Source: an uncultured Opitutaceae bacterium (GTDB lineage: Bacteria > Verrucomicrobiota > Verrucomicrobiia > Opitutales > Opitutaceae). Taken from it: DNA of 64,000 bases. This document shows, piece after piece, positions 37,925 to 60,401 of this stretch. How positions within the stretch are numbered: the stretch's first letter is position 1; each line of letters opens with the position of its first letter. The position numbers and the translations under genes were made by a program. The notes below the pieces were generated by a model. That model was given only the letters and a program-made list of their open reading frames with translations, made no database searches and was not told the origin of the DNA. The stretch is taken from assembly GCA_963974355.1 (NCBI GenBank), contig CAXBDS010000003.1, positions 8,299 to 72,298 on the forward strand. Reading direction: 5' to 3'.

Positions 37925-37955
37925 TTCCCTTTTGCGACTTAGCCCCCAAAAAAAG

Positions 37956-38324: not shown

Positions 38325-38334
38325 AAGGCGCAGT

Positions 38335-38751
38335 ATGAGCAACACGGTTGCCGATACTCGCCGGCCCGGTCGGCGCTTGCTGGTCGGCGTAGTTGGGGTG
38401 ATTATTCTGCTCGCCTTCGAGACGTGGGGAATCGCCCGCAACGCGAACCGGGTGCGGGCCGTGGTCTACAACGACGGCCCCGGCGCCTTGGCCGAAGTGA
38501 CGGTCGCATGCGGGGACGACTCCCGGCTGATCGGCGATTTCCCGGAGGAGTCGAGTCATTACCTGTGGTTTCAACCGGAGGATCGGTCCGCCATGATCGC
38601 AGTCGCGTGGTTTGGCGCCCAAGAAGCCCACCGGGATTTTTGGCGAGTAGAAAAAGGAGAACGACTCACGGTGCGGATCGGGGCAGGCGGCGAAACCACG
38701 GTGACACGCGAACGGTCGATCGGTCGTCGTTTGGTGGACGCCCTGAACTGA
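38335..38751 (+). CDS. Hypothetical membrane-anchored protein
   Basis: N-terminal TM helix then a beta-rich domain; sits tightly between the Hpt and kinase genes. Confidence 0.6.
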   Translation: MSNTVADTRRPGRRLLVGVVGVIILLAFETWGIARNANRVRAVVYNDGPGALAEVTVACGDDSRLIGDFPEESSHYLWFQPEDRSAMIAVAWFGAQEAHRDFWRVEKGERLTVRIGAGGETTVTRERSIGRRLVDALN

Positions 38752-38766
38752 TTGCGCCGAAACTCA

Positions 38767-42458: not shown

Positions 42459-42844
42459 TCGGTGGGGTGCGCCGCGAGCAATTCGCGCACGCGCGCGGCC
42501 AGTTGGGCGGGGCTGAAAGGTTTGCGAAAGAACGCCTGCACGCCAAGCGCCCGTCCCTCGGCTTCGATATGGGTTTCGCCCGCACCAGTGAGGAAAATGA
42601 TCGGGAGCAGGCGGTGGGCCGAATCTTGTCGAATCTCAGCCACCGCCGTGAGGCCGTCGACGTCCTTCATGTGCACGTCAAAAATGCCCAGCGCGACCGG
42701 TCGGGTCCGGATAATTTCCAACGCATCCAGGCCGCTGGTTGCGGTGATGATGGTCGCATCGATCGTGCGAAGGGTGAAGCCGACCAAACGCAGCATATGC
42801 GGTTCGTCGTCGACGATAAGGATGGTGGGGAGCTGCTTGGTCAT
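42455..42844 (-). CDS. Single-domain response regulator (REC)
   Basis: ILIVDDE, IFDVHM, FLTG and RKPF motifs; ATGA overlaps on both sides. Confidence 0.9.
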   Translation of the reverse strand: MTKQLPTILIVDDEPHMLRLVGFTLRTIDATIITATSGLDALEIIRTRPVALGIFDVHMKDVDGLTAVAEIRQDSAHRLLPIIFLTGAGETHIEAEGRALGVQAFFRKPFSPAQLAARVRELLAAHPTE

Positions 42845-44559
42845 CGGCAAAGAGAGGCCACCAACACGGTGCGGTCGTCGGCGATCGTGGCGGGGTCGAG
42901 TTTCAGCGCAATTGGATCCAGCAGGGCGGCGATGAACTCCGGCGGATTCAGTTCGAAACGGGATACCGCGAACTTCAGATAGATTTCCGGTCCGAGCATC
43001 AGCTCTCCATCGGGGCCGGGCAGTTCGTAACAACCATCGGTGTAAAGGACGAGTCGATCCCCCGTATCCATCGGTAAAGGCAATGCCTCATACTGGGTGT
43101 CGGGGAGGATCCCGAGTGGCACGTTTCCACCGCTAGGTTCAATGAAACGTCCATCCGGGCGAAGAATGGCGGGAGCGCAGTGCCCGGCATTCGAGAAGCT
43201 CGGGAGCGCCCCCGGCGTCGGCGGTAGAATCACCAAAATCGCGGTGATGAACATTCCGAGGCGCACGAGATCGGGAAATAATTGGCGGTTGAGGTCGCTT
43301 AGAATTACACTCGGAGACGATTCCACGGCTGAGAGGGCCCGCAACGAGCTTCGTAGCATGGCCGCAAGCAAAGCTGCGGGCACGCCTTTGCCCATCACGT
43401 CCGCCACGAGCACCATCAGCGTGCCATCATGCAAGGTCACCACATCGAAGTAGTCTCCGCCAACCTCCCGCGCCGGGCGACATTCGCCGTGAACCCACCA
43501 CCGCTCGGGGGGCGGAAAAACATCCGGCAGCAACGAGCGTTGGATACCGGACGCGACCTTGATCTCCTGTTCGAGGCGAAGCTGCTGATTACGTTCCTGC
43601 CAAAGGTTGTCCGTCGCTTTCGCGATGCCCACAAAGTCCGCCACGGCTTGGAGCAACTCCACCTCGCCACCAGAAAACGACTGCCGTTGCGCGCCGCGCA
43701 CCACCACCAGCGTCCCTAGTGTCTTGCCTCCAAACTCCACCGGCAGGACGCACAGATGACACGTATTGGCCATGGCGGCGAGAGGGTCGCCATCGGGGAG
43801 CCGATCAACGCCGCCAACCAGTGGGCGACCATCACGCACGCAGACACTCTCCGCAAAATCGCCTGACAACGGGAGCTCGGCCGGCAGGCCGATATCCAAA
43901 CCGAGCGCGTGAAGTTGCAAGGTGTCGCCGACGGTAAATCGCACAAACAGCGAATCGTGCAGGAGCATCGTCTCCAACCGCTCCCGGACCTGAGCCAGCA
44001 GCTGGTCAAAGGTCGAGCTGGTGGCGAGCAGGCCGGTGAAATGAGTCAGGCAAAGCAGCGTCTCAAAGCTGTTGGCCAAATCCTCCGTCAGGCGACCCAT
44101 GTCGTTTTCGGCGTCGGCGGCGGATTCGATACTCATGCCCGGCTGCCGCTCCACGTTCCAGCGGAGAGTCAAAGTGTGGCCGCCATCCGTATTGGAATGC
44201 TCCCAGCCGTCGGTGTTGGAATCGATAATGAAACCACCTCGGCCTCCTTCGGCGAGCGGATCTTCGGGCAGCTCAGCCCAGTTCGCCGGAGGCTGAAAAT
44301 TGCCGGGATCGCAGACCGTGACAACGACGTGATCCGACGCGACCCGCACCGAAAGCTGCACGGTCGTTTCCGGGTTTCCGGCGCAACCATGTTCGATCGC
44401 ATTGTTAACCGCCTCCACCAAGGGCAGCTCGATTCCGGAAAGTTTCTTTGCATCGACCCCGTGGATACGGCACCAGGCCAGCACACGCTTCACGGCCGGC
44501 CGGATCGACGTGAGACGCGGGGGAAGGGCGAGCTGCAACGCCTCGTCGAGTTCGTTCAT
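42841..44559 (-). CDS. RsbW-type Ser kinase / GAF-like / SpoIIE (PP2C) phosphatase fusion
   Basis: EAVNNAIEHG, CDPG and EGGRG (HATPase_c_2); central GAF-like region; VGGDYFD, VADVMGKG, YTDG and DDRT (PP2C). Confidence 0.9.
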   Translation of the reverse strand: MNELDEALQLALPPRLTSIRPAVKRVLAWCRIHGVDAKKLSGIELPLVEAVNNAIEHGCAGNPETTVQLSVRVASDHVVVTVCDPGNFQPPANWAELPEDPLAEGGRGGFIIDSNTDGWEHSNTDGGHTLTLRWNVERQPGMSIESAADAENDMGRLTEDLANSFETLLCLTHFTGLLATSSTFDQLLAQVRERLETMLLHDSLFVRFTVGDTLQLHALGLDIGLPAELPLSGDFAESVCVRDGRPLVGGVDRLPDGDPLAAMANTCHLCVLPVEFGGKTLGTLVVVRGAQRQSFSGGEVELLQAVADFVGIAKATDNLWQERNQQLRLEQEIKVASGIQRSLLPDVFPPPERWWVHGECRPAREVGGDYFDVVTLHDGTLMVLVADVMGKGVPAALLAAMLRSSLRALSAVESSPSVILSDLNRQLFPDLVRLGMFITAILVILPPTPGALPSFSNAGHCAPAILRPDGRFIEPSGGNVPLGILPDTQYEALPLPMDTGDRLVLYTDGCYELPGPDGELMLGPEIYLKFAVSRFELNPPEFIAALLDPIALKLDPATIADDRTVLVASLCR

Positions 44560-45761
44560 GGCGCGGGATGAGTCAGGCAAAGTTTAAGCAAGGAACGCCG
44601 GACCAGGCGGTCATTTTGCGGCAAGGCGGCTTGGTAAAGCGCGTGGGCCAACTCGTCGGGTTCCTCCGGCGTATGCGAACCGTGAAGATCGGCGAGCGAG
44701 AAAACGCCCGGCGGTGTGTGTGCGAGCAGCGTCCGCGTTTCCTCGGGGACCTGCGGAGCTATTTCACTCCGGGGTAAAATCCCGACCAACCTAAGGCGAC
44801 CCGCGACCACCGCGCCGAGCCAGCGAGCTCGGCGGGCCAGCAACGAACCTCGAGACCCCGTGCTCAAACGAAGCGTTCCGCCTCCCGGCAGTAAAACCTC
44901 CCGTGATATCGCCGCCCCCGCACCCAACGCCAAGAGTTGCGCCGGCAACCAGAGCAGCAGCGCCCACGCGCGTTCCCGCATCGGGGTAGACTGCGGCTGC
45001 TGCTGCATCGCAGCCGCGATAAAATCGTCGGTCAGGTCGGCCCGACCTCCGCTCATCGGGTCGAGCAACGTGGCCCCCAGTAACAGCTTATTGTGCACAT
45101 CCAAATGCGCGCCCACGAAGGTGCCTCCCGCGACCAAAGCATGTTGCAAATGGACATCGGAGCTGAGGACGCAGCCGGGCCCAACCAATGCACCGGGTCC
45201 GATCGTGCAGCCCGACTCGATCAAGGTGCCGGCCCCGATCCAATACGGCGGCACCAGCTTAATGCCGGGGGCCAGCGTGACGCGCGGACCGAGCCAGCCT
45301 TGCGGCTCGCGCTGCGTATCGAGATGAACACGTTCCGGATCACGCTTCGCCAGCCAAGCGAGGTTGAGCGCAAGCCACCATCGCACCAACGATGCGCCGT
45401 CCATCGGCGAGGCGTCGCCGGGATCGCATGCCGGCATGCGATCCATCATCTCGGCAACCAGGCCCAGCGGCGGCGACACGGGCAGTAGGCTGAGTTCTAC
45501 GGACCAATAGGCGCCGCCTTCGAGGGCCGCCCGCACCGCCGCCGGACGGTCCGGGCAATAGAGGGTGACCTGCTTGCAGCCCTGCTGCACAGCATGGTCA
45601 AGCCAGTGGGCGGCCAGCGATTGATTTCCGACTTCCCACAAAATAGGCGGGAGATCACGACGCGCTAGCGAATCGAGCACGCTCCAATCCGGCGCGACGA
45701 GCACCAATGCGGGCGCAGGCGATGAGGCGACCGCGACATCTGCGGAGGCAGTCGAACTCAC
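44556..45761 (-). CDS. Degenerate NTP-transferase + left-handed beta-helix + degenerate sugar-transferase fusion
   Basis: PILWEVGNQSLAAHWLDHA, hexapeptide repeats (WIGAGTLIESGCTIGPGALVGPGCVL), C-terminal VVAGRLRLVGILPR; GTGA start overlap inferred. Confidence 0.65.
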   Translation of the reverse strand: MSSTASADVAVASSPAPALVLVAPDWSVLDSLARRDLPPILWEVGNQSLAAHWLDHAVQQGCKQVTLYCPDRPAAVRAALEGGAYWSVELSLLPVSPPLGLVAEMMDRMPACDPGDASPMDGASLVRWWLALNLAWLAKRDPERVHLDTQREPQGWLGPRVTLAPGIKLVPPYWIGAGTLIESGCTIGPGALVGPGCVLSSDVHLQHALVAGGTFVGAHLDVHNKLLLGATLLDPMSGGRADLTDDFIAAAMQQQPQSTPMRERAWALLLWLPAQLLALGAGAAISREVLLPGGGTLRLSTGSRGSLLARRARWLGAVVAGRLRLVGILPRSEIAPQVPEETRTLLAHTPPGVFSLADLHGSHTPEEPDELAHALYQAALPQNDRLVRRSLLKLCLTHPAP

Positions 45762-46474: not shown

Positions 46475-47679
46475 GCGGAGTCGGATTCGGCGTTCGCGAG
46501 GGGCGTTTCAGCGACCGCCAGTCCGCCCAAGGTGCGTGTGAGTCGCTCGAGATAGTCCTCAAAGTCGTAGTGTTTGTTCACATACGTTCGGCCTTGGGCG
46601 CCAAGGCGGCGAGCCAACGATTTGTCGGCCAGCAAACCATCGATCGCCCGTGCAAATGCCGGCACATCACCCCATGGCACCAACCGGCCGGTTTCGCCAT
46701 CGTGCAACCAATCCGGGATGCCACCGGCATCGAACGCCACCACGGGCAGTCCGTAACGCATCACTTCAAGCCCGATCGTGGCGATGGGCTCGGGCCAGAC
46801 TGAGGAAACCGCCACCACGGAAGCATCCCGGTAATAGCCCTTCAATTCCTCTTGGGGAATGAAACCGGGGAAACGCACCCGATCCTGCAGCCCGAGTTCA
46901 CGACAGAGCTTTTCGCAAGCCGCCTGATGATTGCCTGAGCCAAGAATCACCGCTTCAAATGGACGCTCGAGGCGGGCGAGGGCGCGGAGCAGTAGATCCA
47001 CGCCTTTACCGCGGATGATTTGGCCTGCGTAAAGAATAAGATTTCGCTCGGAAAAGCTCGATTCGAGCGGATCTCCCGGACGCGGCACCGGCGGGAAGAT
47101 TTCGATTTTTTCAGACGCGAAGCCGTTGATCTCGAGCTCGTGCTGCATGTAGTGCGTGACCACAAACATTCGGTCAAAACGCCGGGTGAGTGCCAGCTCC
47201 CTGAGCTTGTCGAAGTAAGACACCCACTTGATCGGGAAACCGCCGGAGCGGTCACGCTTAATCGGGGCGAGGCAGGGGAAAACGCAATAGCCGGAGGCCG
47301 GTCGATGGCATACTTTGCGGGTCAACGGATGGTAACGATAGCTCCGCAAACAATAGATGTCGTGGTCGTGCACCATACGGGCAAGCGGAAGGTCCGATTC
47401 GACCAATGCCTCCAACGTCGGCAGATGATCCCACTTATGCACGTAGGCGACCTGGGGCGAAAATCGAGTGCGCACCGTAGCGAGGTCACATTCCGCTTCG
47501 TAGAAGACATGTTCACCGAACAGCGCCCGCCACTTTTCCTCGCCCTTTCCCGTGGCTCGGCGAGTCCAGAGCCCCACGGTGACCCCGCGTCGTTGAAGCT
47601 CGGTGGCTGTGATCAGCACATTAGCCTCGGCGCCGCCCAGGTTTCCGAATGACTCATGAACATAGAGCAGGCGGAACAT
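46471..47679 (-). CDS. GT4 glycosyltransferase
   Basis: GGAE, YAGQIIRGKG and WPEPIATIGLEVM (EX7E) motifs. Confidence 0.92.
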   Translation of the reverse strand: MFRLLYVHESFGNLGGAEANVLITATELQRRGVTVGLWTRRATGKGEEKWRALFGEHVFYEAECDLATVRTRFSPQVAYVHKWDHLPTLEALVESDLPLARMVHDHDIYCLRSYRYHPLTRKVCHRPASGYCVFPCLAPIKRDRSGGFPIKWVSYFDKLRELALTRRFDRMFVVTHYMQHELEINGFASEKIEIFPPVPRPGDPLESSFSERNLILYAGQIIRGKGVDLLLRALARLERPFEAVILGSGNHQAACEKLCRELGLQDRVRFPGFIPQEELKGYYRDASVVAVSSVWPEPIATIGLEVMRYGLPVVAFDAGGIPDWLHDGETGRLVPWGDVPAFARAIDGLLADKSLARRLGAQGRTYVNKHYDFEDYLERLTRTLGGLAVAETPLANAESDSA

Positions 47680-47787
47680 CTTGAACCGAACTCTGACGAC
47701 TGCGCGCTTCGGTTACAACCGGGCAAATCGCGAATTGCAAAAAATCTGCTTCGCAAATCCGGTGGAGCAACGATAGGAAGTTTGCTC

Positions 47788-48102
47788 ATGAGTCTCGTAA
47801 TTCAGACAGCGCTCACTGACGGTTGCCTCAAAGTTGTCCCCACGGTGTCGCGACTGGACGCGGCGGTCGCCCGTGACTTCAAAGCGGAAATTGAGAAAGC
47901 GTGGACCGCCGGGGTTTCGTCCGTGGAAATCGATATGACGGCCGTCGAGTTCGTCGACAGTTCGGGCGTCGGGGCACTGTTAAGCGTGTATCGCAAACTT
48001 CCGCCGGGGGCAGGCGTGACCCGCCTCGTCGGCATTCGTCCCGGCGTGCTCGCGGTGCTGGAGCTGCTCCGCCTCCATCGCGTATTCGAACTGGGCAACT
48101 AA
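47788..48102 (+). CDS. STAS anti-sigma-factor antagonist (SpoIIAA/RsbV-like)
   Basis: RLDAAVA, IDMTAVEFVDSSGVGALL and VLELLRLHRVF motifs. Confidence 0.9.
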   Translation: MSLVIQTALTDGCLKVVPTVSRLDAAVARDFKAEIEKAWTAGVSSVEIDMTAVEFVDSSGVGALLSVYRKLPPGAGVTRLVGIRPGVLAVLELLRLHRVFELGN

Positions 48103-48103
48103 G

Positions 48104-49228
48104 ATGATGTCGCCCGCGGATTCAGGGCGCTATTTCGTCGATGACGAACCGGCTTTGGCCGCGAAGTTGGATCAATTTCTGTCGACTTTGGCGACCGATC
48201 TCGGCGCTCAACCGTGGCGCGAAGATGTCGCTGCGTTGGTTTTGGCCGGCGGATACGGTCGCGGTGAGGGAGGCGTTTTCCGCGCGAGCGAAAAGGCTGA
48301 AGCAGACCTCTACAACGACCTCGAATTTTTCCTCTTTTTGAAAAGCGGTGCCTCCACCCCGCCAGCCGCGGCGTGGTGCGAGCGATGGGAACGGGATGGC
48401 ACCGTCAAGTTGGGGATCGACGTCGAGTTCAAGCGGGATGCCGCCACCGGGCTGCAGCACGGTGCCCCGACGATGTTTTTGTATGACTTATTGCAGGGGC
48501 ATCGCGTCATTTGGGGGGATCCCGGTTGTCTCGCGCGTGCTCCGGCGCGTTTGCGTGATCCTGCCGCAATCCCGGCGGAAGAAGCGACTCGACTGCTTTT
48601 CAATCGTGGCAGCGGGTTGTGGTTTGCCCAAATGAAATTGGCCGCCGATGCGATCGACGAACTCGGTTTCGTTGAGCGAAACCAGCAAAAAGCGAAGTTG
48701 GCGATGGGCGATGCGGTGTTGGCGTTGAGCGGCCGGCATCACGCTATGTGCGAGGAACGCGACCGACGCATCGCAAGCGGCGGGTTCGCCACCCCGCCGG
48801 ACTGGGCCAAGTTGGTCGCATGGCACGACGAAGGCACGGCGTTCAAACTGCGTCCCCGCCATCGGGCGACCGGACTCGAACACCTCAAAGCGAGCCAGAC
48901 CGCATTGGTCGCGGCATGGTTGAAAACGTTTTTATGGGTGGAAGGGCGACGTCTGGACCACGTCTTTACTCAACCGCTCGATTACGTGGCCTGGGACCGT
49001 CGCTTATTTCCCAACCGTGCTCGTTGGCGCAACGTCGCGGTGCATGCGCGTGATCGATTCAAACGCGGCGAAATGTTGCGCGCGGTCACTGACTATCCGC
49101 GAGCCACATTGCAACGCGCGTTGGTCGCCGCGTTGGTCGATGGCACCGCGGCGGGAGCCCGTTGCATGGGGGTAACGGCCACTGATTTCGACACCACTTA
49201 CGCCCGCTGGTGGGCACGCTACAACTAG
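48104..49228 (+). CDS. Pol-beta superfamily nucleotidyltransferase-like protein of unknown function
   Basis: LVLAGGYGRGEG followed by YNDLEF and DVEF acidic motifs, then a helical domain; 1 nt after the STAS stop. Confidence 0.6.
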   Translation: MMSPADSGRYFVDDEPALAAKLDQFLSTLATDLGAQPWREDVAALVLAGGYGRGEGGVFRASEKAEADLYNDLEFFLFLKSGASTPPAAAWCERWERDGTVKLGIDVEFKRDAATGLQHGAPTMFLYDLLQGHRVIWGDPGCLARAPARLRDPAAIPAEEATRLLFNRGSGLWFAQMKLAADAIDELGFVERNQQKAKLAMGDAVLALSGRHHAMCEERDRRIASGGFATPPDWAKLVAWHDEGTAFKLRPRHRATGLEHLKASQTALVAAWLKTFLWVEGRRLDHVFTQPLDYVAWDRRLFPNRARWRNVAVHARDRFKRGEMLRAVTDYPRATLQRALVAALVDGTAAGARCMGVTATDFDTTYARWWARYN

Positions 49229-49278: not shown

Positions 49279-51228
49279 CTAACCCTTGGGGTCGGTCGCT
49301 GGATTCTGTTGCAGCCAAGCATGCGCACGGAGCAAGGCGTCAACGAGATCCTTCGCGCGCAGAGGCTTGGCCAAATAGTCCTGCATGCCACTGGAACGGG
49401 CGGCAGTATGGTGCTCGATCAGCACATTCGCGGTCAGTGCGATGATGTAGGGGTGGTTCTCACAACCGGGGCGTTCGCGAATGCGGCGGGTCGCTTCGAG
49501 ACCGTCGATCCCTGGCATTTGAAGATCCATTAGCACGACATCGTATTTTTCTTGGGCAGTCGCATCGATCGCCTCCTGACCGTTGTCCACCGATGTCCCG
49601 TGATAACCCAGTCGATTCAGATAAAGGAGGATGACTTTGCGGTTCACTGCGATGTCTTCCACGACCAATACCCGCAATGGGTGGAGTCGGGCAAAATCCT
49701 TATCGACCTGTTTGGTCGGCGCGGACTTCACGACCGCCGCGGGCAGCGAGGTAAACAGGCCTCCAAGCACCTGCAACAGCTCGCTCGGTTTGACGGGCTT
49801 CGTCAGTCGGCGGTGAATCAAGTTGCCCGCCTCATCCGATTCGATCCCGCGTGAGGAGAGCAACACCATGGGCGGAAGATCCGGGCCATGGCGTTTCGCC
49901 AATTCACACGCGAGCGCCGCGCCGCTCATTTCCGGCATATTGAAATCGAGGACGACCAAATCAAATGGGGCGGCGGAAGCGTAACGCTCAAGAGCCTCGG
50001 AAGGAGAAGCCACGAGATCGACGTTCAGCCCCCAACCGGAAAGTTGTTGGTCAAGGATGCGCCGATTGATCGCGATATCATCCACCACGAGCACCCGACG
50101 CCCCTGCAACGCGCTCGGGTCAGGCGTGGTCCCGATTTCATCCAGCGGGCATTCCCGGGCGAGAATATGAAAACGGAAACAACTGCCTTCGCCCGGTCGA
50201 CTTGTCACATCAATCGTTCCACCGAGGAGGCCGACGAGACGATCGGTGATCGCGAGTCCCAATCCGGAACCGCCGAACTTCCGGGTGGTGGAGCTATCGA
50301 CCTGACTGAAGGCTTTAAAGAGGCGATCAATCCGCTCCCGAGGAATGCCTACGCCCGTATCTTCGACGCGGAATTCGATTTTCCAGAGGTCGTTGATTTG
50401 CTCGGCCGCGACAAAAATCCCGACCCCGCCTTCGCCGGTAAATTTCAACGCATTCCCGACCAGATTGATCATGATCTGACGTAGCCGCGTCGGGTCGGTG
50501 AACACATGTTGAGGCACCGACGGCGCGAATGAGGTGCCCAGATCCAGACCCGCTTTTGTCGCACTCTCGGAAAACAGATCCAAGACTTGCTCCACGGAAG
50601 AAACGAGGTCGCACGGAATCGTTTCCACCTCAAGATGTCCGGCCTCGATCTTCGAAAAATCGAGGATGTCGTTGATCGTATCGAGCAGGGTGTCGCCGCC
50701 TTGCCGGATGAGTTCGACGTATTCGTGGTGAGCTTTGTCGAGTGGCGCATCGAGCAGCATGCTGGTCATCCCGATGATGGCATTGAGCGGCGTGCGAATC
50801 TCGTGACTCATATTGGCGACGAACTCGCTCTTCGCCCGATTGGCATTGTCGGCGGCGTCCTTCGCGGTGCGCAGCGCCGTCTCCGTTTCCTGCCGTTCCG
50901 CCACCAGACGTTCGATCTCTTCGGTAAGGTGAAGCATATCCTGATCGCTCGTGGAAATCGTCGCTTCGGGATGCAGTCGATTCACGGTTTGGCGGAGCCG
51001 CACGAGGATCTGTTCGTTACTTTGGTTTTGCTCAAGCAGCGAAGCGTTTGCCGCGCTCAGTTCCCGGGAACTCATCTCCATCACGTGATCGCTCAATCGC
51101 CGGTCTTGGTCGAACTGCGTGTAGGAGGCCGACACACGTTCAAGCAATTCCGCCACCCCCGCAGGCAGGTTCTCGGGTGATCCCAATGAGCGCTTGACCT
51201 GTCGCAGCAACAGGGGATGCAAGCTCAT
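49279..51228 (-). CDS. Cytoplasmic hybrid histidine kinase with two REC domains, FIST-associated
   Basis: [11 protein letters not shown]-terminus, [25 protein letters not shown], RECs VLDFNMP and LMDLQMP; ATGA overlap with the FIST gene. Confidence 0.93.
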
Positions 51229-52355
51229 GCGAGTTCCTCGGCGAGGCTGGTTATCGTCATCGTCTGGTTGTGCAACTGACACGCATGCTCATGACCGGAA
51301 GGGGCGAGTTCGCCATAAGAATAAAAGCCCGTGAGCACGGGCGTCTGCCCAAAGATAGAACGCACGCCCTCGAGTTCCTCCTCGGTCCGTTCCCCCAGAA
51401 CTACCCGACGTCCCACGCAACTCACGCAGATGACCAATTCGGACGCTTGCACCGCCTGCCGCGCCGCCTCTTCGGCTCCATTCACGAGCTCTTCATAAGA
51501 CGCTCGCATAAAACGAACCGAAGCCCCCTTCGGAATGTCCCCTGCAAAGGTCATCGTGCCAGCGTCATCATCAATCGACAAGATGGTGCGCACGACGGCC
51601 TTGGTTTGATGGGGTGGCACGACAGAAAGCGGAAAACGTAACGCCGCTGCGGGTAGCGCATCGGCTTCTGGACCGAGATACGCGCGATAGAGTTCAAGCG
51701 CTGGTTGGCCATCGAGTTCGCTCAACACGTTGTTCGCCGACGCCGTGACGGTGCGGGAGGGTCCGAACGTGGACCAACCGCCTGCGCTGCCAAATCCGAG
51801 GCGAAGCGACTCGCCATAAAGTCCCACCGCGACGACCACACCGGTAGTCGGCGGGCTGTCGAGACCGACCAAGGTGCTCGCAAAATCAGTGCCGTCGCCA
51901 GCCAAGCCTCCACTGAGCGTGACCCCCTCGGGCAGACATTGGTTGAAGGCCGCGATCAGCGTGCTACCGTTCACGAGACTACCGTCCGAAAAAACCAAAA
52001 CGTGCCGGAGGTCCGGGGCATTCAATTGCGAACCAAGCAACTGGCAAAGCGTATCCAAATTGGCTCCCGTTTCTAGCCGAGCGGACGCGCAACGCAGTGT
52101 CGCCCGCTCCAAACAAAGGGCCGTGCACACCAGTTGCTCATCTTCGATTCGAATGTCAGCCAAGTTTCCAGCCGTGGACACCATCACCACCCGCGCGTTC
52201 GGAAAACGCTTTCGAACTTCATCAAACAGGGCTGGCTTGGCCAGTGTCGCCCGCAGGCCAAAAACGAGGACGAGGCCGGCGTCCTCCGGGGACAGGTCGC
52301 CGGTAAGGTCAGTCCAGCTGGCTTCGGTCGACAGGAGGGTTTGAAGCAATTTCAT
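51225..52355 (-). CDS. FIST_N/FIST_C domain protein (NosP-like sensor)
   Basis: STAG, FSDG...[38 protein letters not shown] and LHNQTM motifs. Confidence 0.9.
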
Positions 52356-52423
52356 GAGACGAGCGGATTGAGGTTTCGGGCCGATGAGTGAATGCGAAAA
52401 AAGGGTAGGGGGGAGACCGCAGG

Positions 52424-53482
52424 CTAGGGGCCCGAGACGGGCGTGACGAGGTTTGCCTTGCCATCAGGAACCGCAAAATTCCCGCCCTCATTGGCCGCGA
52501 GCGTGCGCACGAACGTCTGTAGCACGGTGCGGGCGTATTTCTGAAGATTCCCCCACGGCACGTCGGGAACCCAGACGATGTCGCGCGGTTCGAGATCGAC
52601 ATCGGGCACTTGGCCCCGACGGATCGCGTCGTAGTCGACGAGGTAAACGGCCGGCTCTTGCAGCGAACCGCGTAAAATCAACACCTGGCCCGTGCGAGCA
52701 CCGGGCCGCACGTCCCGCGCCGCAGCGATGGCCGAGACCAATGTCACTCGATCTCGGAAGCCGACCGCTTTCGGTTGGTTGACCGCGCCAAGGACATAAA
52801 TCTCCTGTGCCAGCGCGGACGGCAGATAAATGTAATCTCCCGGCTCTAGGGCCACGTTTTGGCTGAGGTCGCCTTGGTTAAAAAGACGCACGAAATCCAC
52901 CGGCACCATCTCGCCCTCCCGCACAAGAAAGCTGTGACGCAGGTCCGCCAGTTCTTCGGTGGTGCCGGAAAACCGCGACGTGAACAATCCGCCCGCCCGC
53001 CCCACGCCTTCCAGCAAAGTCAGCGGCTGGTCCAGAGGATAGAGCCCCGGCGTGTTCACCCGACCGAGAATCCAAACCCGCCGACTGCGAACGCGCCGTA
53101 ACGTGAGCCCGACCTGCGGATCCCGGTAGTAAGTCGTCAATCCCTTGACCAGCTGTTGACGGAATTCGTCAAGGGTGAGGCCCTCTGCCCGTTGAGCGGG
53201 CAAGAGATCGTAGTAGACCTTACCGTCGGGCATGACGAGGCATAGTCGACGGGTGTTGGGCAGGCCTAGGATATCCACCTCGACCGCGTCACCCGGCCCG
53301 AGGATAAACGGTTTGGGCACCAACGCTTCAGCCGGAAGCGCAGCCGCATCAAGCACGGTCGTCGGCTGCGTGAGCGGTTGGGAATCTGGCACCGAACGCG
53401 CGGGCGGGCGTCGACTTTGACAGCCCGTTAAAAGCAGCATGCCACCGAGCACGACCATCAAGCGTAAGCGCGCGGTCGTCAT
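52424..53482 (-). CDS. Polysaccharide export (OPX/Wza-like, SLBB) lipoprotein
   Basis: Lipobox LLLTGC, LGPGD, PDGKVYY, VWILGRVNTPG and YVLGAVNQP motifs. Confidence 0.88.
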   Translation of the reverse strand: MTTARLRLMVVLGGMLLLTGCQSRRPPARSVPDSQPLTQPTTVLDAAALPAEALVPKPFILGPGDAVEVDILGLPNTRRLCLVMPDGKVYYDLLPAQRAEGLTLDEFRQQLVKGLTTYYRDPQVGLTLRRVRSRRVWILGRVNTPGLYPLDQPLTLLEGVGRAGGLFTSRFSGTTEELADLRHSFLVREGEMVPVDFVRLFNQGDLSQNVALEPGDYIYLPSALAQEIYVLGAVNQPKAVGFRDRVTLVSAIAAARDVRPGARTGQVLILRGSLQEPAVYLVDYDAIRRGQVPDVDLEPRDIVWVPDVPWGNLQKYARTVLQTFVRTLAANEGGNFAVPDGKANLVTPVSGP

Positions 53483-54519
53483 CGCACTTGTGGCAACGAT
53501 CCACTCGGCAACCACGGTCCGAGATTTTGATCCGTCCAGGTCGATGTCATGCTGCTGAGAAACGTGGTGATCGCCATGTCGACGAGTTCCTCTCCGAGCC
53601 GCCACGGCCGCTTGGAAACGTAAACGATGTCCTTGGGTTGAAGCGGCACGTCGCGCGTCTTCCCCTGCAGCACCGATTCAACATCCACCACGATCGTTTC
53701 CGGATGCTCCAGGGACCCACGAATGATGAGCACGCGGCTCCGGTAGGCCTGCCGACTAAAACTGCCGCGAACCGTGATCGCTCCGATGGCGGTAAGCTGC
53801 GGCGTGAATCCCAGCACCCCCGGCTGGCCGACCTCGCCGAGCACGTAAACGTCGTTGCTCACCGCGGAGGCGAAATAAATGAAATCGCCGGGCTCGATCT
53901 GCACATTTTGCGACAAATCGCCTTCAAAAAAGAGCTTCTCCAAGTCGATGGGCAGGCGTTTCTCATGACGCACGACAAAGGAGCGGGGGAGGTCGGCCAA
54001 CTCCACGGTGTTACCCTCAAACAAGCCGGTCTCCACCCCGCGGGCGCGCGCCACGGCTTCAATTAGGGTGATCGGATATTCGAGCGAAAACACCCCCTTG
54101 TCGACCACCTTGCCGAGCAGCACATAGCGTTTGCTGCGCAGTTCGACCGGGGTGATGATCACCCGCGGGTGGTTGTAGAAATCCTTCAAAAGCACCTCGA
54201 TAGCGGCGCGCAACTCGTCAATCGTTCGGCCGCTCGCCATCACCTCCGAGGCCTGCAGGTAACCGATGCGCCCGTCAGGCCGGACGAACACCTGCGCCCG
54301 TTCCAACTCCGGTTGTCCGTAGAGTGAAAAATCCAGAATGTCGCCAGGGCCCAACGTGTAGTTGTCCCGCCATGACGGCGGCGCAGAAGGGACGTTCGCC
54401 GCAACGCCCTTCGCCCCCGCCGGCGCAGCGCCCTGACCCGTCGCAACTGGTGCATCGACGCCAACCAGCGGCGTGAGGCTCGCGAAAAGCCAGACCGAGA
54501 ACAGCGTAATCGCGCGCAT
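53479..54519 (-). CDS. Second polysaccharide export (OPX/Wza-like, SLBB) protein
   Basis: Non-lipoprotein signal peptide; YTLGPGD, VRPDGRIGY, YVLLGKVVDKG and VYVLGEVGQPG motifs. Confidence 0.88.
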   Translation of the reverse strand: MRAITLFSVWLFASLTPLVGVDAPVATGQGAAPAGAKGVAANVPSAPPSWRDNYTLGPGDILDFSLYGQPELERAQVFVRPDGRIGYLQASEVMASGRTIDELRAAIEVLLKDFYNHPRVIITPVELRSKRYVLLGKVVDKGVFSLEYPITLIEAVARARGVETGLFEGNTVELADLPRSFVVRHEKRLPIDLEKLFFEGDLSQNVQIEPGDFIYFASAVSNDVYVLGEVGQPGVLGFTPQLTAIGAITVRGSFSRQAYRSRVLIIRGSLEHPETIVVDVESVLQGKTRDVPLQPKDIVYVSKRPWRLGEELVDMAITTFLSSMTSTWTDQNLGPWLPSGSLPQVR

Positions 54520-56405
54520 CAACTGGATCGACGACGTTTCCACCACGGCAGCGCATCGGTGACGATAAGGCCGTGCAACCGGATCCCGGCGTCGCGCAAA
54601 AGGCGGGCCTGGCGTTGCCACGTTGAAATTGAGGCATGATCCGCCGAGATCACCAGCACGGCGCCCCCCCATTCCCGCGCGAGAGTGAGGGCCGGCTCCA
54701 CCGTGTCGCCCGATAGCCGAGCCCAGAAATCGGAAGGCGCGGAGTTGTGGGCTGCGGCTTGCGCCGAAGCGAGGGTCAACGCAGCAGGATCGAGCCGAAT
54801 CGCCCCCGGCAACGACGGGTGTGCGCTCGTGCCGGCGTCGACCGTGATCAACTCCGGTTGCAGGCGAAAGGCTTCCGCCAAGAGGGCGCCCCAAAGCCGA
54901 CCTTCCGAGGGAGTTGCAGCCGGAGCCCAAAGCACCGCCGGGCGATTCTCCGCCGCGGCCGGTGTGGCCCATGTCACCCAAAGCGAACGCACGGTGGAGG
55001 CGGGATTCGCTCCCGGCTCGAGCGTGGCCAGCAAGGGTGCCTTGAAAATCCGCCGGGCTTCAAAAGCGGAGCGTAACCGTTGATCGAATACCTCGCGCAC
55101 AATCACCAGGAACACTCCGAAACCACCGCCCAGCACCAATCCGGCGGCGGCGTAAACAAACAATTTCAAAGTGCGCGAGGTGGACGCAACCGACTGAGGT
55201 GTCGCCGTGCTGAAAATCTGGTAATACCCGGGAGCACGTTCGCTATAGAGCGTTGCCTCTCGCAACCGACTGGCCAGCAACTGCCGCGCCGTTTCCAAGC
55301 CCCTTTGCACGAGTTTTTGGCGAGCCAAGGCCGCCACTTTTTCCGGCAGCTCTTCCACCCGGGCCCGGGCGGAGTCGCGCAGCTCTGTCAATCCAGCCAG
55401 TTGTTTTTCGGCCCCGTCACGCCGCGCCCGCAGATCGATTAGCTCGAGATAGAGCGTTCCTCCGATGGCGGTCGACGCATAGTCAGCCAACGACAGTTCG
55501 CGACCCTTGTCAGCCGCCGCCGATTCCAACGCCGCGACCTTGGCCTGCAGGTTTTGCACGATCGGGTTCTTCTCGGTGAAGCGTCCCAATGCGTCCTGCA
55601 GTTCGGCACGTGCCGTGATGAGGCGATCGTCGTTCGCCGAGTAGCGCGCAAGTTCCGATTCGAGTGCCTTCAGCTTAAACTCGACCGTCTGGAGATCGAT
55701 GCGCGCGGTCTCGTAGCGGAGGTCGAGATCGGCCAACTGACGCAAAAACACGTCGGTCTGTTTTTCGGCGTCGACCAGATTTTCGCGTCGCGAAAACGCG
55801 AGCATCTCTTGGTTGATGCGATTCAGATCCGCATCGGTGGTCTCGATCTGCTGCTGAAGGTAAGTGCGAACCTCGCGGCTTTCCCGCGTCTGCAACTCGC
55901 GCGAAAATTCTACGATCTCCGCCGCCCATAGATTCACCAGATCGGCCGCTGCTTGGGCTGATTCCGTTCGCCGAGCCGTGAGTTGCAGAAAGTCGGTGTT
56001 CCGGATTTCGACGGCGTCGGTGTTGAGCCGCAGCATACCCACGGATATCGGTGGATCGGCCTGCGCGGAGACTCGCGTAAGCACATTGTCGGACAGGGCC
56101 GAGGTGATCAGCGTCGCGGTGCTAAGTGATCGTGGCTTGTAGGGATCACCGATCTCACCGGCTCTAAATGTGGTTGAGGGTTCGCGCTTGATAAGCCGTG
56201 CCATCGCCTCGTAGCGGTCACTCGCCCGGAAGTGCCCCGCAGCGAGGAACAGCATGAGCCCCAACACCGCGCTGAGGATAACCCAGCGATACCGTTCGAG
56301 TAATGATCCCGCGAGCCGGAATGGATCGAAGACGATGTCGAGTCCTATTCCCCCTGGGGCCGGCGCCGGCGCTGGGTGAGGGGAGGACGTTGTATCAGCG
56401 TTCAT
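54519..56405 (-). CDS. Polysaccharide co-polymerase (Wzc/GumC-like) with degenerate kinase domain
   Basis: TM, long coiled coil containing FTEKNPIV, second TM, then REVFDQRLRS and a C-terminal domain without a GK(S/T) Walker A. Confidence 0.8.
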   Translation of the reverse strand: MNADTTSSPHPAPAPAPGGIGLDIVFDPFRLAGSLLERYRWVILSAVLGLMLFLAAGHFRASDRYEAMARLIKREPSTTFRAGEIGDPYKPRSLSTATLITSALSDNVLTRVSAQADPPISVGMLRLNTDAVEIRNTDFLQLTARRTESAQAAADLVNLWAAEIVEFSRELQTRESREVRTYLQQQIETTDADLNRINQEMLAFSRRENLVDAEKQTDVFLRQLADLDLRYETARIDLQTVEFKLKALESELARYSANDDRLITARAELQDALGRFTEKNPIVQNLQAKVAALESAAADKGRELSLADYASTAIGGTLYLELIDLRARRDGAEKQLAGLTELRDSARARVEELPEKVAALARQKLVQRGLETARQLLASRLREATLYSERAPGYYQIFSTATPQSVASTSRTLKLFVYAAAGLVLGGGFGVFLVIVREVFDQRLRSAFEARRIFKAPLLATLEPGANPASTVRSLWVTWATPAAAENRPAVLWAPAATPSEGRLWGALLAEAFRLQPELITVDAGTSAHPSLPGAIRLDPAALTLASAQAAAHNSAPSDFWARLSGDTVEPALTLAREWGGAVLVISADHASISTWQRQARLLRDAGIRLHGLIVTDALPWWKRRRSS

Positions 56406-57535
56406 GAGTGGGCGGCGGCGCGATAGATTTCGGCGGTGGCCTGAGCGCAATGAGTCCAAGCGAATTGTTGGGCCCGCGCGAGCCCGCGTTGTCGCCAATC
56501 ATCGGGCGATGACAGCACGTCAAGGAGGCCGGCAACCATGGCGTCGGGGTTTTCCGGATCGACGATCCGGGCCGCGTCAGCCACGACCTCGCCGAGTGAA
56601 CCGCGATCCGAGCACACCACGGGGCAACCACAGGCCATTGCCTCTATCGGCGGCAGTCCGAATCCCTCAAAGAGCGACGGATATGCCAAAAGATCGGCCC
56701 CGGCATACCACAGGGGCAAATCTTCGGCGGTGACAAAACCCGTCGTGCGAATCCGGTCCCGCAGCGGCGATGCCGCCACGCGGGCATGAATCACCTCTGC
56801 TCCATGCCAATCCGCACCGGCCAGCACGAGGTCGTGGGGCAGGCCCGGCTGGATAATCGCCAGACGTTCAAACGCCTCGATCAAGCGCACGTGGTTTTTC
56901 GCCGGGTGCTCCAAGCGAGCGAGATAAACCATGTAAGGGCGCGGCAGATTCTGACGGAGCCGAAACTCCGCCAACGCGCCATCGTCAGCGGGGCGAAAGC
57001 GGCGATGATCAATACCGTTCCAGACCACATCGATCTTGTCCACGGGCCAATGAAAGAACCGTTCCACATCCGACGCGGTCGCCTGGCTCACGGTAACCAG
57101 ACGGCGCGCCTTCCGAGCCAATCGCGGAACCACGTGGCGCCCGTAAGCCATCCGGGCGGCATCGTATTTTCCCCGCACGTGAAACGCCGCGCAGTCGTGA
57201 ACCGTAACCACCTGCGCGCACGGAGGTCGAAACAAGATGCGGCGGTAGCTGGGGATGTGCACCACATCGGCGTTGATCGCGCGTAAGCGTCCCGGGAAAA
57301 GGACCTGATGCCACCAAATGTCCCTGACCGCGGGTCGCCACTTTTCTGATACCTCCTCCCAGGAAACACGATCAAGCCACGGCTCGAAGTGAATGCGGTC
57401 ATTCCGCAGGCCAAAAAGTGTCAGTCGAATATCCGGGCACGTGCTGACAAGCCCCTCTATCAGGCCAAACAAATATGCGGCTACGCCCGACTTCCCCCGC
57501 TGGTTGACACTGGTGCTGATCGCGACGTGAGGCAT
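56402..57535 (-). CDS. GT4 glycosyltransferase
   Basis: VVTVHD, VWNGID, KNHVRL and YPSLFEGFGLPPIEAMACG motifs. Confidence 0.94.
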   Translation of the reverse strand: MPHVAISTSVNQRGKSGVAAYLFGLIEGLVSTCPDIRLTLFGLRNDRIHFEPWLDRVSWEEVSEKWRPAVRDIWWHQVLFPGRLRAINADVVHIPSYRRILFRPPCAQVVTVHDCAAFHVRGKYDAARMAYGRHVVPRLARKARRLVTVSQATASDVERFFHWPVDKIDVVWNGIDHRRFRPADDGALAEFRLRQNLPRPYMVYLARLEHPAKNHVRLIEAFERLAIIQPGLPHDLVLAGADWHGAEVIHARVAASPLRDRIRTTGFVTAEDLPLWYAGADLLAYPSLFEGFGLPPIEAMACGCPVVCSDRGSLGEVVADAARIVDPENPDAMVAGLLDVLSSPDDWRQRGLARAQQFAWTHCAQATAEIYRAAAHS

Positions 57536-57540
57536 GGATT

Positions 57541-58953
57541 TCAGGACGTTTCAAACAAGCGGTCGAGATGGGTCTGGCGCAGCAATAAATCAGGTTGGCC
57601 GGTGACACCGCGGAGGGAAAGTTCACCGCCGCGTTTACGCGTGAGTCGGCGGATTTTCAGCAGCCAGCCGATGCCGGAACTGTCGATCAGACGGACGTGG
57701 CTGAGGTTGAGGCTGAGATGATTTGAGGTCGGGTGTCGGCGCCACGCCTCGTTGAGCCAACGGCTGGCGGCCGCGAGACGAGGTGCCGTAAGATCGCCCT
57801 GGCACGAAAGCACCAACTCCCCCGGACCGGACGGTTCCAAGTGCGGGGTCATCCCCGGTGTTTGTTGACGGCACTGTTCGACTGCCGAGTCCACCGTGGT
57901 GGCGCAGACGAAGAGTCGGTCGAGATGGACCGCCGCAAGGAGATTCAACACGTAGGGCGACGGGGCCAATAGCACCAAACCTGCGCCTTGGTTTTTCACC
58001 TCACGATAGAGGGAAACCAAACGTCCGAGTCCAAAACTATCCATGAACACCACCGCCCGTAGATCGAGTAAGAGACCGCTGGGCGTCTCCGCGATCTCAC
58101 AAGCCGGTAGTGACTCCACTGTGCCACTTTCAATTCGCCCGGCCCAAACCACGAGTCTCAAGTCGGCGGGTATCGTCGGAGTTCCAGCGGAAACGACGTC
58201 GCGCGAATCGAGCCCGCGTGACTGATCCTTGAAACGCCTAATGAAAAAAACGAGTTGGGCCGAGTATTTCAGGGTTCGCGCCCAAGGATGATGGAGCCAC
58301 CAATGAACCCAGGCGAGCCCGCGACGCCCCCAAGCTGTAGGCACGCGGCTGACCCGACCGGCCGTCACGGCCAGACCGTCGCCGATACCGATCAACAGGG
58401 GCGTATCCAACCACGGCAATTGACGATAGACCCACTCGGTTTCGATGGCCGGGGGTAATCCCACGAGCAGCACTTGAAGATTCGCGTTTCGGATTTGCTC
58501 TCGCTGCCAGTCCTCGTCGGCGACCGGGCCGTGTAAGAGGGTCGGGGGAGAGAGCGTCGGATGCGCTACCGACAACCGCGCCGCTGCGGCCGTGAGGTCT
58601 TCTTTTTGGGGGCCGAGCAGACCGAGTCGCCATCCCTTTTCCGCCACGAGTTTCGCCACGATATCCGCGATTTCGCCCCCCGTAAACGGAGCCGGAATCG
58701 CCACCCCCAGCCGACCAGCGGCCCATGCCAGCGCGGAACTCGCGCACAGCACTGCGGTGCATTCGGCCAAGATCGTCTGGCGCAACACGTCGCGGTCGCA
58801 AGTCACGGCCTCGGACATCGTGCCAAGCGCGATTTGGTTCGGGCGCCGGGACGCGACACAATCAGCCAACAAATCGGGCAAGGCGGCACGCTCAATCGCG
58901 AGCAAGGGCAGGCCGAGGACGACGGATTGCTGACCTAGGGCAGCTACGGTCAT
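57541..58953 (-). CDS. Degenerate WecG/TagA (GT26) domain fused to two STAS domains
   Basis: Colinear with the upstream paralog but with eroded catalytic motifs; STAS motifs FMDSFGLG and LIDSSGIG. Confidence 0.75.
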   Translation of the reverse strand: MTVAALGQQSVVLGLPLLAIERAALPDLLADCVASRRPNQIALGTMSEAVTCDRDVLRQTILAECTAVLCASSALAWAAGRLGVAIPAPFTGGEIADIVAKLVAEKGWRLGLLGPQKEDLTAAAARLSVAHPTLSPPTLLHGPVADEDWQREQIRNANLQVLLVGLPPAIETEWVYRQLPWLDTPLLIGIGDGLAVTAGRVSRVPTAWGRRGLAWVHWWLHHPWARTLKYSAQLVFFIRRFKDQSRGLDSRDVVSAGTPTIPADLRLVVWAGRIESGTVESLPACEIAETPSGLLLDLRAVVFMDSFGLGRLVSLYREVKNQGAGLVLLAPSPYVLNLLAAVHLDRLFVCATTVDSAVEQCRQQTPGMTPHLEPSGPGELVLSCQGDLTAPRLAAASRWLNEAWRRHPTSNHLSLNLSHVRLIDSSGIGWLLKIRRLTRKRGGELSLRGVTGQPDLLLRQTHLDRLFETS

Positions 58954-60401
58954 TCGATCGAAAACAGGTTATCCATCTTTGCCAGACGGAATACATTGCG
59001 CACGTTTTCCGTGGGCTGGCTGATAATGAGTTTGGCGCCGGGGCGCGCCGCCGTCAGGCGGTGGACATGCAACAGGAGCCCAAGTCCGCTGCTGTCCATA
59101 AAACGCACCGCAGACATATCGACGACCACGCGCTTCGCCGTGGGACGGGCCGCCCAAAGATCATCGATCCAACGCAACAGACCGGGAGTGCGCGTGGCAG
59201 TAAGTTCGCCTTGGATCGGGAGCATCAAGTCCTCCGCACTACTCGCCGCAGCTGAAGTCGGTCGCGTCAATCCTAGCGCCGCCCGAGCTCGCGCCGGCTC
59301 GTCGATGATCGGAAATAATCGCGCCAGCTTCATGGCGTCGAGCAAACCGGCCACGGCCGGCGACGGATTCACCAAGGCGAGACCGCCCCCCCCGGCGATG
59401 GCGCGCCGATAGGCCGCGAGCATAAAGCCCAGACCGCTGCTATCGAGAAAGCTCACTGCGGAGGTATCGAGCGCGATGGCGGTGCCCGCCGACAAATCAG
59501 CGGAGGGATCGACTATTTGGGCGCCTGCAATCGCCGCCGCATCGACCCGGCCGGACCAGCGCACGGAACGCACATCGCCGGACAGCATCGGGGCAGCCGG
59601 CGGCGGGACATTCGGGCTGGATACCGCGGCCTCGGGGCGCACGGCCAACGCCCGGCGTTGCGCGCGAAGTGCCCGCACAAAGAACAGCAAATCGACGAGG
59701 TAACGACTAAAGAGACGACGCGGCTCCTGCATGAGCCGAAACACCCATTCCGCACCGACCACCTGCATCCACCGTGGCGCACGCTTAAATTTACCCGCGA
59801 GAAAATCCACCGTCGCGCCGACACCCACGCTCATCGGCACGCCGAGGCGACGATGATGCATAAAGATCCACTTCTCTTGTTTCGGACAGCCGAAGGCGAC
59901 GAAAAGCACGTCAGGACGAGCGCTTGTGATGCGTTGCTTGATCGTGTTGAAGTCCATTTCGAGCAACTTTGCAAACGAGGGCGAGTAGCCATCGATTTGC
60001 AACCCGGGGTGGCTCGCCCGCAAATTGGCCAAAGCCAGCGGAAGCGTTTCTTCTCCGCCCCCGAGCAGGAAAATCTTCCACCCCTTCTCCGCCGCCTCAG
60101 CCGCGAGGCGAGGCACCAGATCCGAGCCGGCCACGCGCTCCCGCAGTGGTGCGCCCAACGCCTTCGACGCCCACACCAACGGTGTGCCGTCGCACAACAC
60201 CAAATCGGCCTCGACGAGGATGCGTTGCAGTTCGACATCCTCACTCGCCTGAAACGTGAAGTCCAGATTGGCGGTCGCCCAATAACACGGCTGACGCCGC
60301 TCGATCAATTGGCCGAGGCGAGTGACGGTCTCATCCATCGTGACGTCGTGAAACGGAACTCCGAGGATCACGACCGAGCGGGGTGGGGCGAGGTTAGCCA
60401 T
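58950..60401 (-). CDS. WecG/TagA (GT26) glycosyltransferase fused to two STAS domains
   Basis: TANLD, LCDGTP, RVAGSDL, FGCPKQEKW and EWVFRLMQEPRRL; STAS motifs FLDSSGLG and FMDSSGLG. Confidence 0.9.
   Translation of the reverse strand: MANLAPPRSVVILGVPFHDVTMDETVTRLGQLIERRQPCYWATANLDFTFQASEDVELQRILVEADLVLCDGTPLVWASKALGAPLRERVAGSDLVPRLAAEAAEKGWKIFLLGGGEETLPLALANLRASHPGLQIDGYSPSFAKLLEMDFNTIKQRITSARPDVLFVAFGCPKQEKWIFMHHRRLGVPMSVGVGATVDFLAGKFKRAPRWMQVVGAEWVFRLMQEPRRLFSRYLVDLLFFVRALRAQRRALAVRPEAAVSSPNVPPPAAPMLSGDVRSVRWSGRVDAAAIAGAQIVDPSADLSAGTAIALDTSAVSFLDSSGLGFMLAAYRRAIAGGGGLALVNPSPAVAGLLDAMKLARLFPIIDEPARARAALGLTRPTSAAASSAEDLMLPIQGELTATRTPGLLRWIDDLWAARPTAKRVVVDMSAVRFMDSSGLGLLLHVHRLTAARPGAKLIISQPTENVRNVFRLAKMDNLFSIE

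Follow-up and report, generated by a model that had tools for sequence, protein, structure and literature searches.

A putative split FIST sensor and sensor-less hybrid kinase unit lies together with H-NOX in a syp-like exopolysaccharide locus of an Opitutaceae bacterium

We analysed a 64,000-nucleotide (nt) stretch of an uncultured Opitutaceae bacterium (GenBank assembly GCA_963974355.1, contig CAXBDS010000003.1, positions 8,299 to 72,298 of the forward strand; hereafter the window), with a focus on a minus-strand gene pair that encodes a stand-alone FIST sensor protein of 376 amino acids (aa; 51225–52355) and a cytoplasmic hybrid histidine kinase of 649 aa (49279–51228). The first protein is a member of the FIST superfamily (PF08495 and PF10442), with both Pfam domains above their gathering thresholds: FIST_N covers residues 28–217 (1.6e-36, 126.5 bits against a cut-off of 23.2) and FIST_C residues 219–352 (4.9e-35, 121.0 bits against 28.5), so that together they take up nearly the entire chain, an assignment borne out by an AlphaFold2 model and by conservation across 80 sequences. 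The TGA of the FIST gene overlaps the ATG of the kinase gene in an ATGA junction (ctcgcATGAgc; 51225–51228, minus strand), giving the NosP-type gene layout of a single FIST_N–FIST_C protein directly upstream of a co-oriented histidine kinase gene. An original prediction made from the letters alone had described a FIST protein ATGA-coupled to a soluble dual-REC hybrid kinase, 68 nt after export genes on the same strand and in the same locus as an H-NOX protein. All of this held: the overlap, the Pfam domains and the absence of transmembrane segments in the kinase are as described, the nearest export gene is a Wza-like gene (52424–53605, minus strand), and H-NOX lies 21.3 kb away within one exopolysaccharide (EPS) locus. 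The likeness drawn to NosP/NahK-type systems also stood at the level of arrangement, as a stand-alone FIST protein coupled to a sensor-less hybrid kinase is what is known for NosP with VpsS, NosK or NahK (PMC6769237, PMC12570481).

Pfam divides the kinase into HisKA (residues 132–197), HATPase_c (244–356) and two Response_reg stretches, the better of which spans 520–632, and both receivers retain the acceptor Asp, the Ser/Thr and the Lys. Pfam detected no PAS, Hpt or other sensor domain in the protein and nothing ahead of HisKA; its N-terminus holds no hydrophobic stretch and no transmembrane segment, the first 130 aa being hydrophilic and helical. These are the features of sensor-less kinases regulated by an accessory protein, of the VpsS, NosK or HnoK type. 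With two receivers but no Hpt of its own, the kinase most likely passes phosphoryl groups to the single stand-alone Hpt of the locus. Identification of the kinase as NahK, BarA, TorS or a similar protein was rejected, with only the catalytic core and receiver aligning and scores far below cut-offs. Against the NCBIfam NahK and NahK/ErcS-family models (NF041831, NF041832) only the catalytic core aligned, and both cut-offs were missed: the kinase scored 148.4 bits where the NahK model requires 1500, and 195.2 bits where the family model requires 400. What precedes HisKA is a helical module (residues 1–125; 50854–51228, minus strand) with the motif hHPLLxRQhK...Y...D.DR...SS.EL, recognised by homology across loci and fusions, which is presumed to receive the FIST signal.

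The FIST protein carries the motifs STAG (60–63), GGLAGDG (149–155), SCVGRR (312–317), GFYSYGEL (343–350) and CQLHNQTMT (359–367) of a widespread clade, with at least 595 confirmed loci in species-representative genomes from Verrucomicrobiota, Bacteroidota, Patescibacteria, Pseudomonadota, Nitrospirota and other phyla, and with 903 representatives at 50% identity (E ≤ 1e-30). Of the 72 loci whose downstream sequence was long enough, 56 have a kinase core on the same strand within 1.2 kb after FIST and 68 have one within 4.5 kb. A homologue of the ~120-aa N-terminal module starts the protein right after FIST in 45 of the 72, spread over many phyla (clade consensus h.lL.RQi.k.lg ... ll.av...Y...d.Dr.l.era...Ss.El...n..L), and the module's single occurrence in the window's own genome adjoins the sole FIST gene. 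The two parts also occur in one chain. Clade FIST units are fused to a class III cyclase (P0444), to a PAS-HisKA-HATPase-REC kinase (P0394) and to a Ser/Thr kinase (P0429), and in each fusion the stretch right after FIST aligns to the window kinase's N-terminal module (E = 1e-8, 2e-8 and 4e-5, respectively). Since the same module follows FIST in split loci and in fusions, the alignments indicate that FIST and the module are one sensory-transmission device, fused or split, here divided at the ATGA junction. Nothing else argues as strongly for control of the neighbouring kinase by the FIST protein as this linkage, drawn from sequence comparison. Other layouts occur in the clade as well: a group of proteins of 1200–2400 aa (P0363, P0364–P0374) contains two to four tandem FIST units, one of them with a Kelch-type match, and many Bacteroidota members (L019, L028, L044, L045, L065–L069, L073) have a sigma-54 activator gene 0.3–2 kb upstream of FIST, with the kinase 1–4 kb downstream instead of directly after.

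The original prediction had called the FIST protein a NosP-like gas sensor, a label that survives for the arrangement and fails for NosP identity. Against the NCBIfam NosP equivalog (NF041558) the protein scored 56.8 bits, far from the cut-off of 450, and other members of its clade scored 46–70 bits. As yardsticks we used four proteins that pass the NosP cut-off (511–541 bits), aligned with each other and compared by hhalign with a 20-member alignment of the window's clade; the two aligned over their full length with 96.8% probability at 19% identity. The motifs S-T-(A)-G, D-G, GGxAGD, C..RR, GF..YGE and NQT.T are common to both, but the invariant histidine pair of the four NosPs, H200 and H361, is aligned to Gly193 and Leu361. 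Among 80 clade sequences from many phyla, C313 and H362 are invariant (80/80 each), C359 is nearly so (78/80), M283 and M366 are invariant, and H118 is found in only 70%. The histidine beside NQT reads H-L-N-Q-T in NosP, H-V-N-Q-T in an intermediate clade and L-H-N-Q-T in the window's clade, so that H362 stands one position after NosP H361, and a Cys preceding it (C-x-x-H) is found only in the window's clade. The kinases that follow true NosPs are PAS-rich NahK proteins (PAS_8, PAS_7, PAS_4) with N-termini unlike that of the window kinase, which has no PAS. On these alignments we regard the 376-aa protein as a FIST homologue of NosP at the superfamily level and not as a NosP orthologue. One candidate yardstick, L082 (261 bits against the NosP model), was set aside after proving to belong to the third, intermediate clade. 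That clade includes proteins of Desulfobacterota, candidate division KSB1, Spirochaetes and the archaeon Methanoculleus, and one deltaproteobacterial metagenome-assembled genome (MAG) carries a third-clade FIST alongside two members of the window's clade. When the Burkholderiales member L061 was used as a query, the best 120 matches were proteins of Oxalobacteraceae and Comamonadaceae and metagenome proteins, with no Burkholderia among them.

The protein could still be a true NosP-type hemoprotein that senses NO (nitric oxide) or heme, in which case the locus would hold two gas or heme sensors of different ranges. The stand-alone FIST_N+FIST_C architecture and kinase coupling are the same as in NosP, the homology runs the full length and extends to the shared motifs, including the His beside NQT, and heme binding has been reported for divergent FIST proteins, namely Burkholderia NosP and the FIST domain of V. 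cholerae CdpA (PMC12570481, PMC8846402). We nevertheless think this unlikely, given the low model score and identity, the replacement of both NosP-invariant histidines and the placement of the clade's own histidine one position later, in a C-x-x-H that NosP lacks. Moreover, a review treats NO and heme binding by FIST as merely suggested (PMC8846402), and the eukaryotic FIST structure is pocketless and heme-insensitive (bioRxiv 10.1101/2024.06.03.594717). As the NosP heme ligand is not defined in the literature searched, sequence decides heme binding in neither direction, and the label 'second gas-sensor class' goes beyond the evidence.

The AlphaFold2 model of the 376-aa protein (predicted local distance difference test (pLDDT) score 82, predicted template modelling score 0.77) has the three-repeat FIST fold, with FBXO22 chains as the top Foldseek matches in the PDB (E = 1e-9 to 2e-7, TM ~0.5) and Toblerone-fold cyanuric acid hydrolases next; a PDB search by sequence returned nothing meaningful, leaving only the fold search informative. 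The FBXO22 FIST domain consists of three pseudo-symmetric YjgF-like repeats and resembles chorismatases and cyanuric acid hydrolases; it has no obvious pocket, is insensitive to heme and bears a C-terminal beta-hairpin that folds upon partner binding (bioRxiv 10.1101/2024.06.03.594717, 10.1101/2024.06.03.596960). FBXO22 (PDB 8ua3, 8s7d) is thus like the window protein in its three-repeat pseudo-symmetric fold, of which it is the best structural match (E = 1e-9), and its partner-gripping hairpin corresponds to the window protein's most conserved and least confidently modelled segment. It is unlike it in being a eukaryotic F-box substrate receptor, without ligand pocket or heme sensitivity, at 12% sequence identity. 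The lowest-confidence segments of the model (61–70, 151–160, 311–320 and 341–360) coincide with the clade-invariant motifs, and a segment that is both invariant and poorly modelled may be part of a site that becomes ordered only with a ligand or partner.

Such a site might respond to a cue other than heme, either a small polar metabolite bound at the centre of the three repeats or metal or thiol redox chemistry at C313, C359 and H362, in which case the cue reported by FIST would differ in kind from that reported by H-NOX. We hold this as a tentative but real possibility. Enzymes of Toblerone or YjgF descent have their small-molecule site at the repeat junction (bioRxiv 10.1101/2024.06.03.594717), the invariant motifs (STAG, GGLAGDG, SCVGRR, YGE...C..H) occupy the lowest-pLDDT loops, and the two Cys and the His are held across phyla at the frequencies given above. 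That one sensor unit serves kinases, cyclases and Ser/Thr kinases alike, as a general-purpose input domain would. Tempering this, heme/NO is the sole ligand known for bacterial FIST proteins, and the gene neighbourhoods we saw give no metabolic hint.

The H-NOX protein (184 aa; 29358–29912, minus strand) matches HNOB (PF07700) at 3.7e-39 and 134.7 bits, and its sequence contains both the proximal His (SYIHVEV) and the heme-propionate motif YxSxR (YYSSR). Its gene is directly followed by one for an H-NOX-associated hybrid kinase (HisKA, HATPase, REC; 28003–29358, minus strand), and the two form the 3' end of a GT2-GT4-flippase string. The genome (5.57 Mb, 96% complete) has one FIST match and one HNOB match, and both lie in the window, 21.3 kb apart; by simple arithmetic, two single genes placed at random would fall this close in ~0.8% of cases. 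The claim that the two sensor folds bracket the EPS locus needs adjusting: the H-NOX–kinase pair indeed marks the left edge, but the FIST–kinase pair is interior, with the locus continuing to ~63 kb.

The wider distribution of this pairing bears on what the FIST protein senses. The original prediction had proposed a survey of loci carrying both H-NOX and FIST, which has in part been made: in a published genome-neighbourhood network, FIST genes are among the families within 5 genes of group-1 hnox (PMC8738867), and in two Flavobacteriaceae (L074, L079) a member of the window's clade stands in a tandem REC-H-NOX-PAS kinase-FIST-kinase-LytTR array. These enrichments, together with the proximity of the genome's sole FIST and sole H-NOX, would favour a NosP-like role in NO or heme sensing. 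On the other side of that question, H-NOX lies within 10 kb of FIST in just 2 of 79 clade loci, and the two were never close together in 60 relatives, 16 of them from the same genus; in same-genus genomes they are megabases apart or on different contigs. Because none of the 60 relatives shows this closeness, co-location characterises this narrow lineage and does not hold generally. H-NOX and FIST do associate, and recurrently, but the pairing is sporadic, far from universal and already documented in the literature.

The EPS locus spans ~27–63 kb of the window, 36 kb in all, its left limit being set by housekeeping genes (lepA, signal peptidase, fabD, dapAB) to the left of 27 kb. The FIST–kinase pair is preceded on the minus strand by the export genes (52424–56498), two Wza-like (52424–53605 and 53479–54981) and one weakly Wzz-like (54519–56498), with coordinates that are limits of open reading frames (ORFs), the true starts probably being later. 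The product of the nearest has Poly_export and SLBB domains, and its gene ends 68 nt before the FIST ATG. Beyond these come a GT4 gene, two glycosyltransferases of the WecG family, both with two fused STAS domains (57541–60401, minus strand, sharing one operon string with the export genes and FIST), another GT4 and, heading the string, a sigma-54 enhancer-binding protein (61743–63149, minus strand). No receiver or other Pfam domain was detected in the first ~150 aa of the sigma-54 protein, and it was therefore rejected as a REC-type (SypG/LuxO-like) output regulator.

Between H-NOX and the FIST–kinase pair lie further signalling genes. A stand-alone Hpt (37881–38324, plus strand) is the only Hpt match in the window, and a third hybrid kinase (HisKA, HATPase, REC; 38752–40650, plus strand) follows, whose own N-terminal 260 aa have just a weak PDC-like sensor match. 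A 173-aa ORF without a family match (38230–38751, plus strand) runs in frame into this kinase with one TGA (38749–38751) between them, and could be a spurious ORF, the front of a broken longer sensor kinase or a case of read-through. An RsbW-like kinase-GAF-PP2C protein (42841–44580) and then a stand-alone REC (42455–42838), both on the minus strand, are likely to be the output switch of a relay. A single-domain STAS protein (47656–48102, plus strand) is convergent with the FIST–kinase operon, and paired with it is a 374-aa protein with no family match (48104–49228, plus strand), convergent on the kinase gene, that keeps its position at 66–68% identity in the two relatives with matching gene order described below. 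The locus also contains a priming sugar transferase and further glycosyltransferases, among them a GT4 enzyme that seems to be split into overlapping ORFs (35244–36179 and 36176–36493, plus strand), the first encoding the N-terminal half together with the beginning of the GT1 domain, and the second, of 105 aa, the remainder; a frameshift or an assembly error might account for the split. Taken together, the cluster holds a syp-like set of parts (hybrid kinases, Hpt, receiver, RsbW/PP2C, STAS and a sigma-54 activator), with three Hpt-less hybrid kinases to a single Hpt.

The pair is separated from the Wza-like gene by a spacer of 68 nt (52356–52423, minus strand). Promoter and terminator scans of 48.9–52.7 kb gave counts no higher than in shuffled sequence, with none within the spacer; the spacer's RNA fold was not better than shuffles (z 0.75), and its sequence showed no conservation among relatives. 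The FIST–kinase pair is a putative member of the export-gene operon.

Gene order in relatives ties the pair more closely to the export genes. A metagenome contig (L102, 72% FIST identity) and an Opitutaceae MAG (L003, 69%) share with the window the order Wzz-Wza-Wza-FIST-kinase-(unknown 374 aa, STAS)-GT4-priming transferase-hexapeptide protein-RsbW/PP2C-REC-uridine kinase-phosphodiesterase. This fragmented MAG (G118) carries the FIST and H-NOX modules on separate contigs, the latter as GT4-flippase-H-NOX-kinase with its local order unchanged on a second short contig. The presence of both modules in a related MAG implies that the two-sensor locus exists in at least one more species. In G118 (L109, 4066–8970, minus strand) an Hpt homologue (38% identity) is followed by a 1507-aa ORF instead of a ~630-aa kinase, so the central part of the locus is not the same in the two species. 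In IMCC26134-like relatives (L103/L104, 13121–14968) genes for a DNA_alkylation-like protein and a nitroreductase come after the pair, neighbours that could hint at a nitrosative or redox context.

The same comparison raises the possibility that the pair is a portable cassette that landed in an EPS locus, with its target unlinked and its proximity to H-NOX incidental. We judge this improbable: the post-Wza position and the whole regulatory set are kept in both syntenic relatives at 69–72% identity, the gap to the export genes is short with no terminator detected, and the locus supplies an Hpt and a REC where no other donor set is obvious. It would nonetheless account for relatives at 67% identity in which the pair sits in a non-EPS context and for the separation of FIST and H-NOX in same-genus genomes, and eleven further Hpt domains elsewhere in the genome could serve as relay partners.

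The reading that we favour is that the FIST protein and sensor-less kinase form one of three inputs to a shared Hpt relay controlling EPS, to which we assign a probability of roughly 60%. From the gene set we infer how such a scheme might run. The FIST protein would dock on the kinase's ~120-aa helical N-terminal module, and its ligand or cofactor state would set the balance between kinase autophosphorylation and phosphatase activity, much as NosP controls VpsS, NosK or NahK and H-NOX controls HnoK or HahK. The FIST kinase, the H-NOX kinase and the third hybrid kinase would exchange phosphate with the single local Hpt, which in turn would pass it to the lone REC coupled to the RsbW-GAF-PP2C/STAS switch, and that switch may govern the STAS-fused glycosyltransferases. 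Overall this would amount to a syp-like, many-inputs-one-output control of exopolysaccharide. Several observations weigh against the proposal. The local Hpt barely exceeds its Pfam cut-off (26.0 against 24.6 bits), and it is not necessarily the kinase's partner, because 11 of the 12 Hpt matches in the genome lie elsewhere. The sigma-54 activator has no detectable receiver domain, which leaves the scheme short of one SypG-like output branch. The argument for co-transcription with the export genes is a 68-nt gap in which no terminator was detected. Finally, in IMCC26134-like relatives (67% identity) the FIST–kinase(REC-REC) pair is found outside any EPS locus, beside HSP90 and nitroreductase genes, which marks it as a portable module that could have a target other than EPS.

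A bolder proposal, which we offer as a long shot, is that the GFYSYGEL/C-x-x-H-NQTMT clade consists of widespread cytoplasmic sensors, present in hundreds of species from many phyla, with a mechanism distinct from NosP, always read through one helical module, split or fused in cis, and that Cys313, Cys359 and His362 would use metal or thiol chemistry to sense redox or NO without heme, in this lineage working beside H-NOX to gate EPS through a shared Hpt.

To our knowledge, FIST is among the commonest bacterial sensor folds lacking a structure-based ligand assignment, and all the functional knowledge of it that we are aware of comes from a few proteobacterial NosP proteins. The link between FIST and the helical module, split or fused, provides a concrete candidate docking site for FIST signalling to its outputs. 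The locus itself is a compact wiring diagram, with an H-NOX kinase, a FIST kinase, a third kinase, an Hpt, a receiver and a partner switch inside their presumed target cluster, and because all the relay parts are in one cluster, the phosphorelay could be rebuilt from a single 36-kb fragment. If the clade does not bind heme, the practice of annotating every FIST–kinase pair as an NO sensor needs correction.

A FIST protein and sensor-less kinase, probably a split sensor unit, are thus found inside a syp-like EPS locus together with H-NOX, in an accessory-sensor layout that is already known from several systems. In Vibrio cholerae, NosP–VpsS relays to LuxU, LuxO and then the vps genes (PMC6769237). 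That system has the same co-cistronic pairing of a stand-alone FIST protein with a soluble sensor-less hybrid kinase, a relay that requires a separate Hpt and an output in polysaccharide and biofilm control (PMC6769237, PMC13654575), the last two of which are proposed for the window. The window differs in having a FIST protein outside the NosP equivalog, a kinase with two receivers and a clade-specific helical N-terminal module, genes placed inside the EPS cluster itself and no evident REC-type sigma-54 regulator. NosP–NahK of Pseudomonas aeruginosa, Legionella and Shewanella likewise has its FIST accessory sensor encoded immediately before a hybrid kinase, within a network of several kinases, but NahK has several PAS domains and the window kinase none. 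In Burkholderia pseudomallei and B. thailandensis, NosK consists of DHp and CA only, and NosP binds it and inhibits its autophosphorylation (PMC12570481). The NosP–NosK–NosR system resembles the window in that its kinase lacks a transmembrane segment and a recognised sensory domain (PMC12570481); its output, unlike that of the window's two-REC hybrid with no adjacent regulator, is an HD-GYP response regulator from the same operon. A parallel at the level of the whole locus is the syp system of Vibrio fischeri (SypF, SypG and SypE/SypA), in which HnoX–HahK feeds SypF, SypG and SypE (PMC12369376). There, several sensor kinases, one of them H-NOX-controlled, converge via an Hpt on EPS regulators, a convergence that for the window is proposed, and the syp locus similarly has an RsbW/PP2C-type protein, a STAS protein and a sigma-54 activator (PMC12369376). 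In V. fischeri, hnoX–hahK lies apart from syp and the system has no described FIST input, whereas in the window the REC is split from the RsbW-GAF-PP2C protein and the H-NOX–kinase pair, the FIST–kinase pair, the Hpt and the switch all lie in one 36-kb locus.

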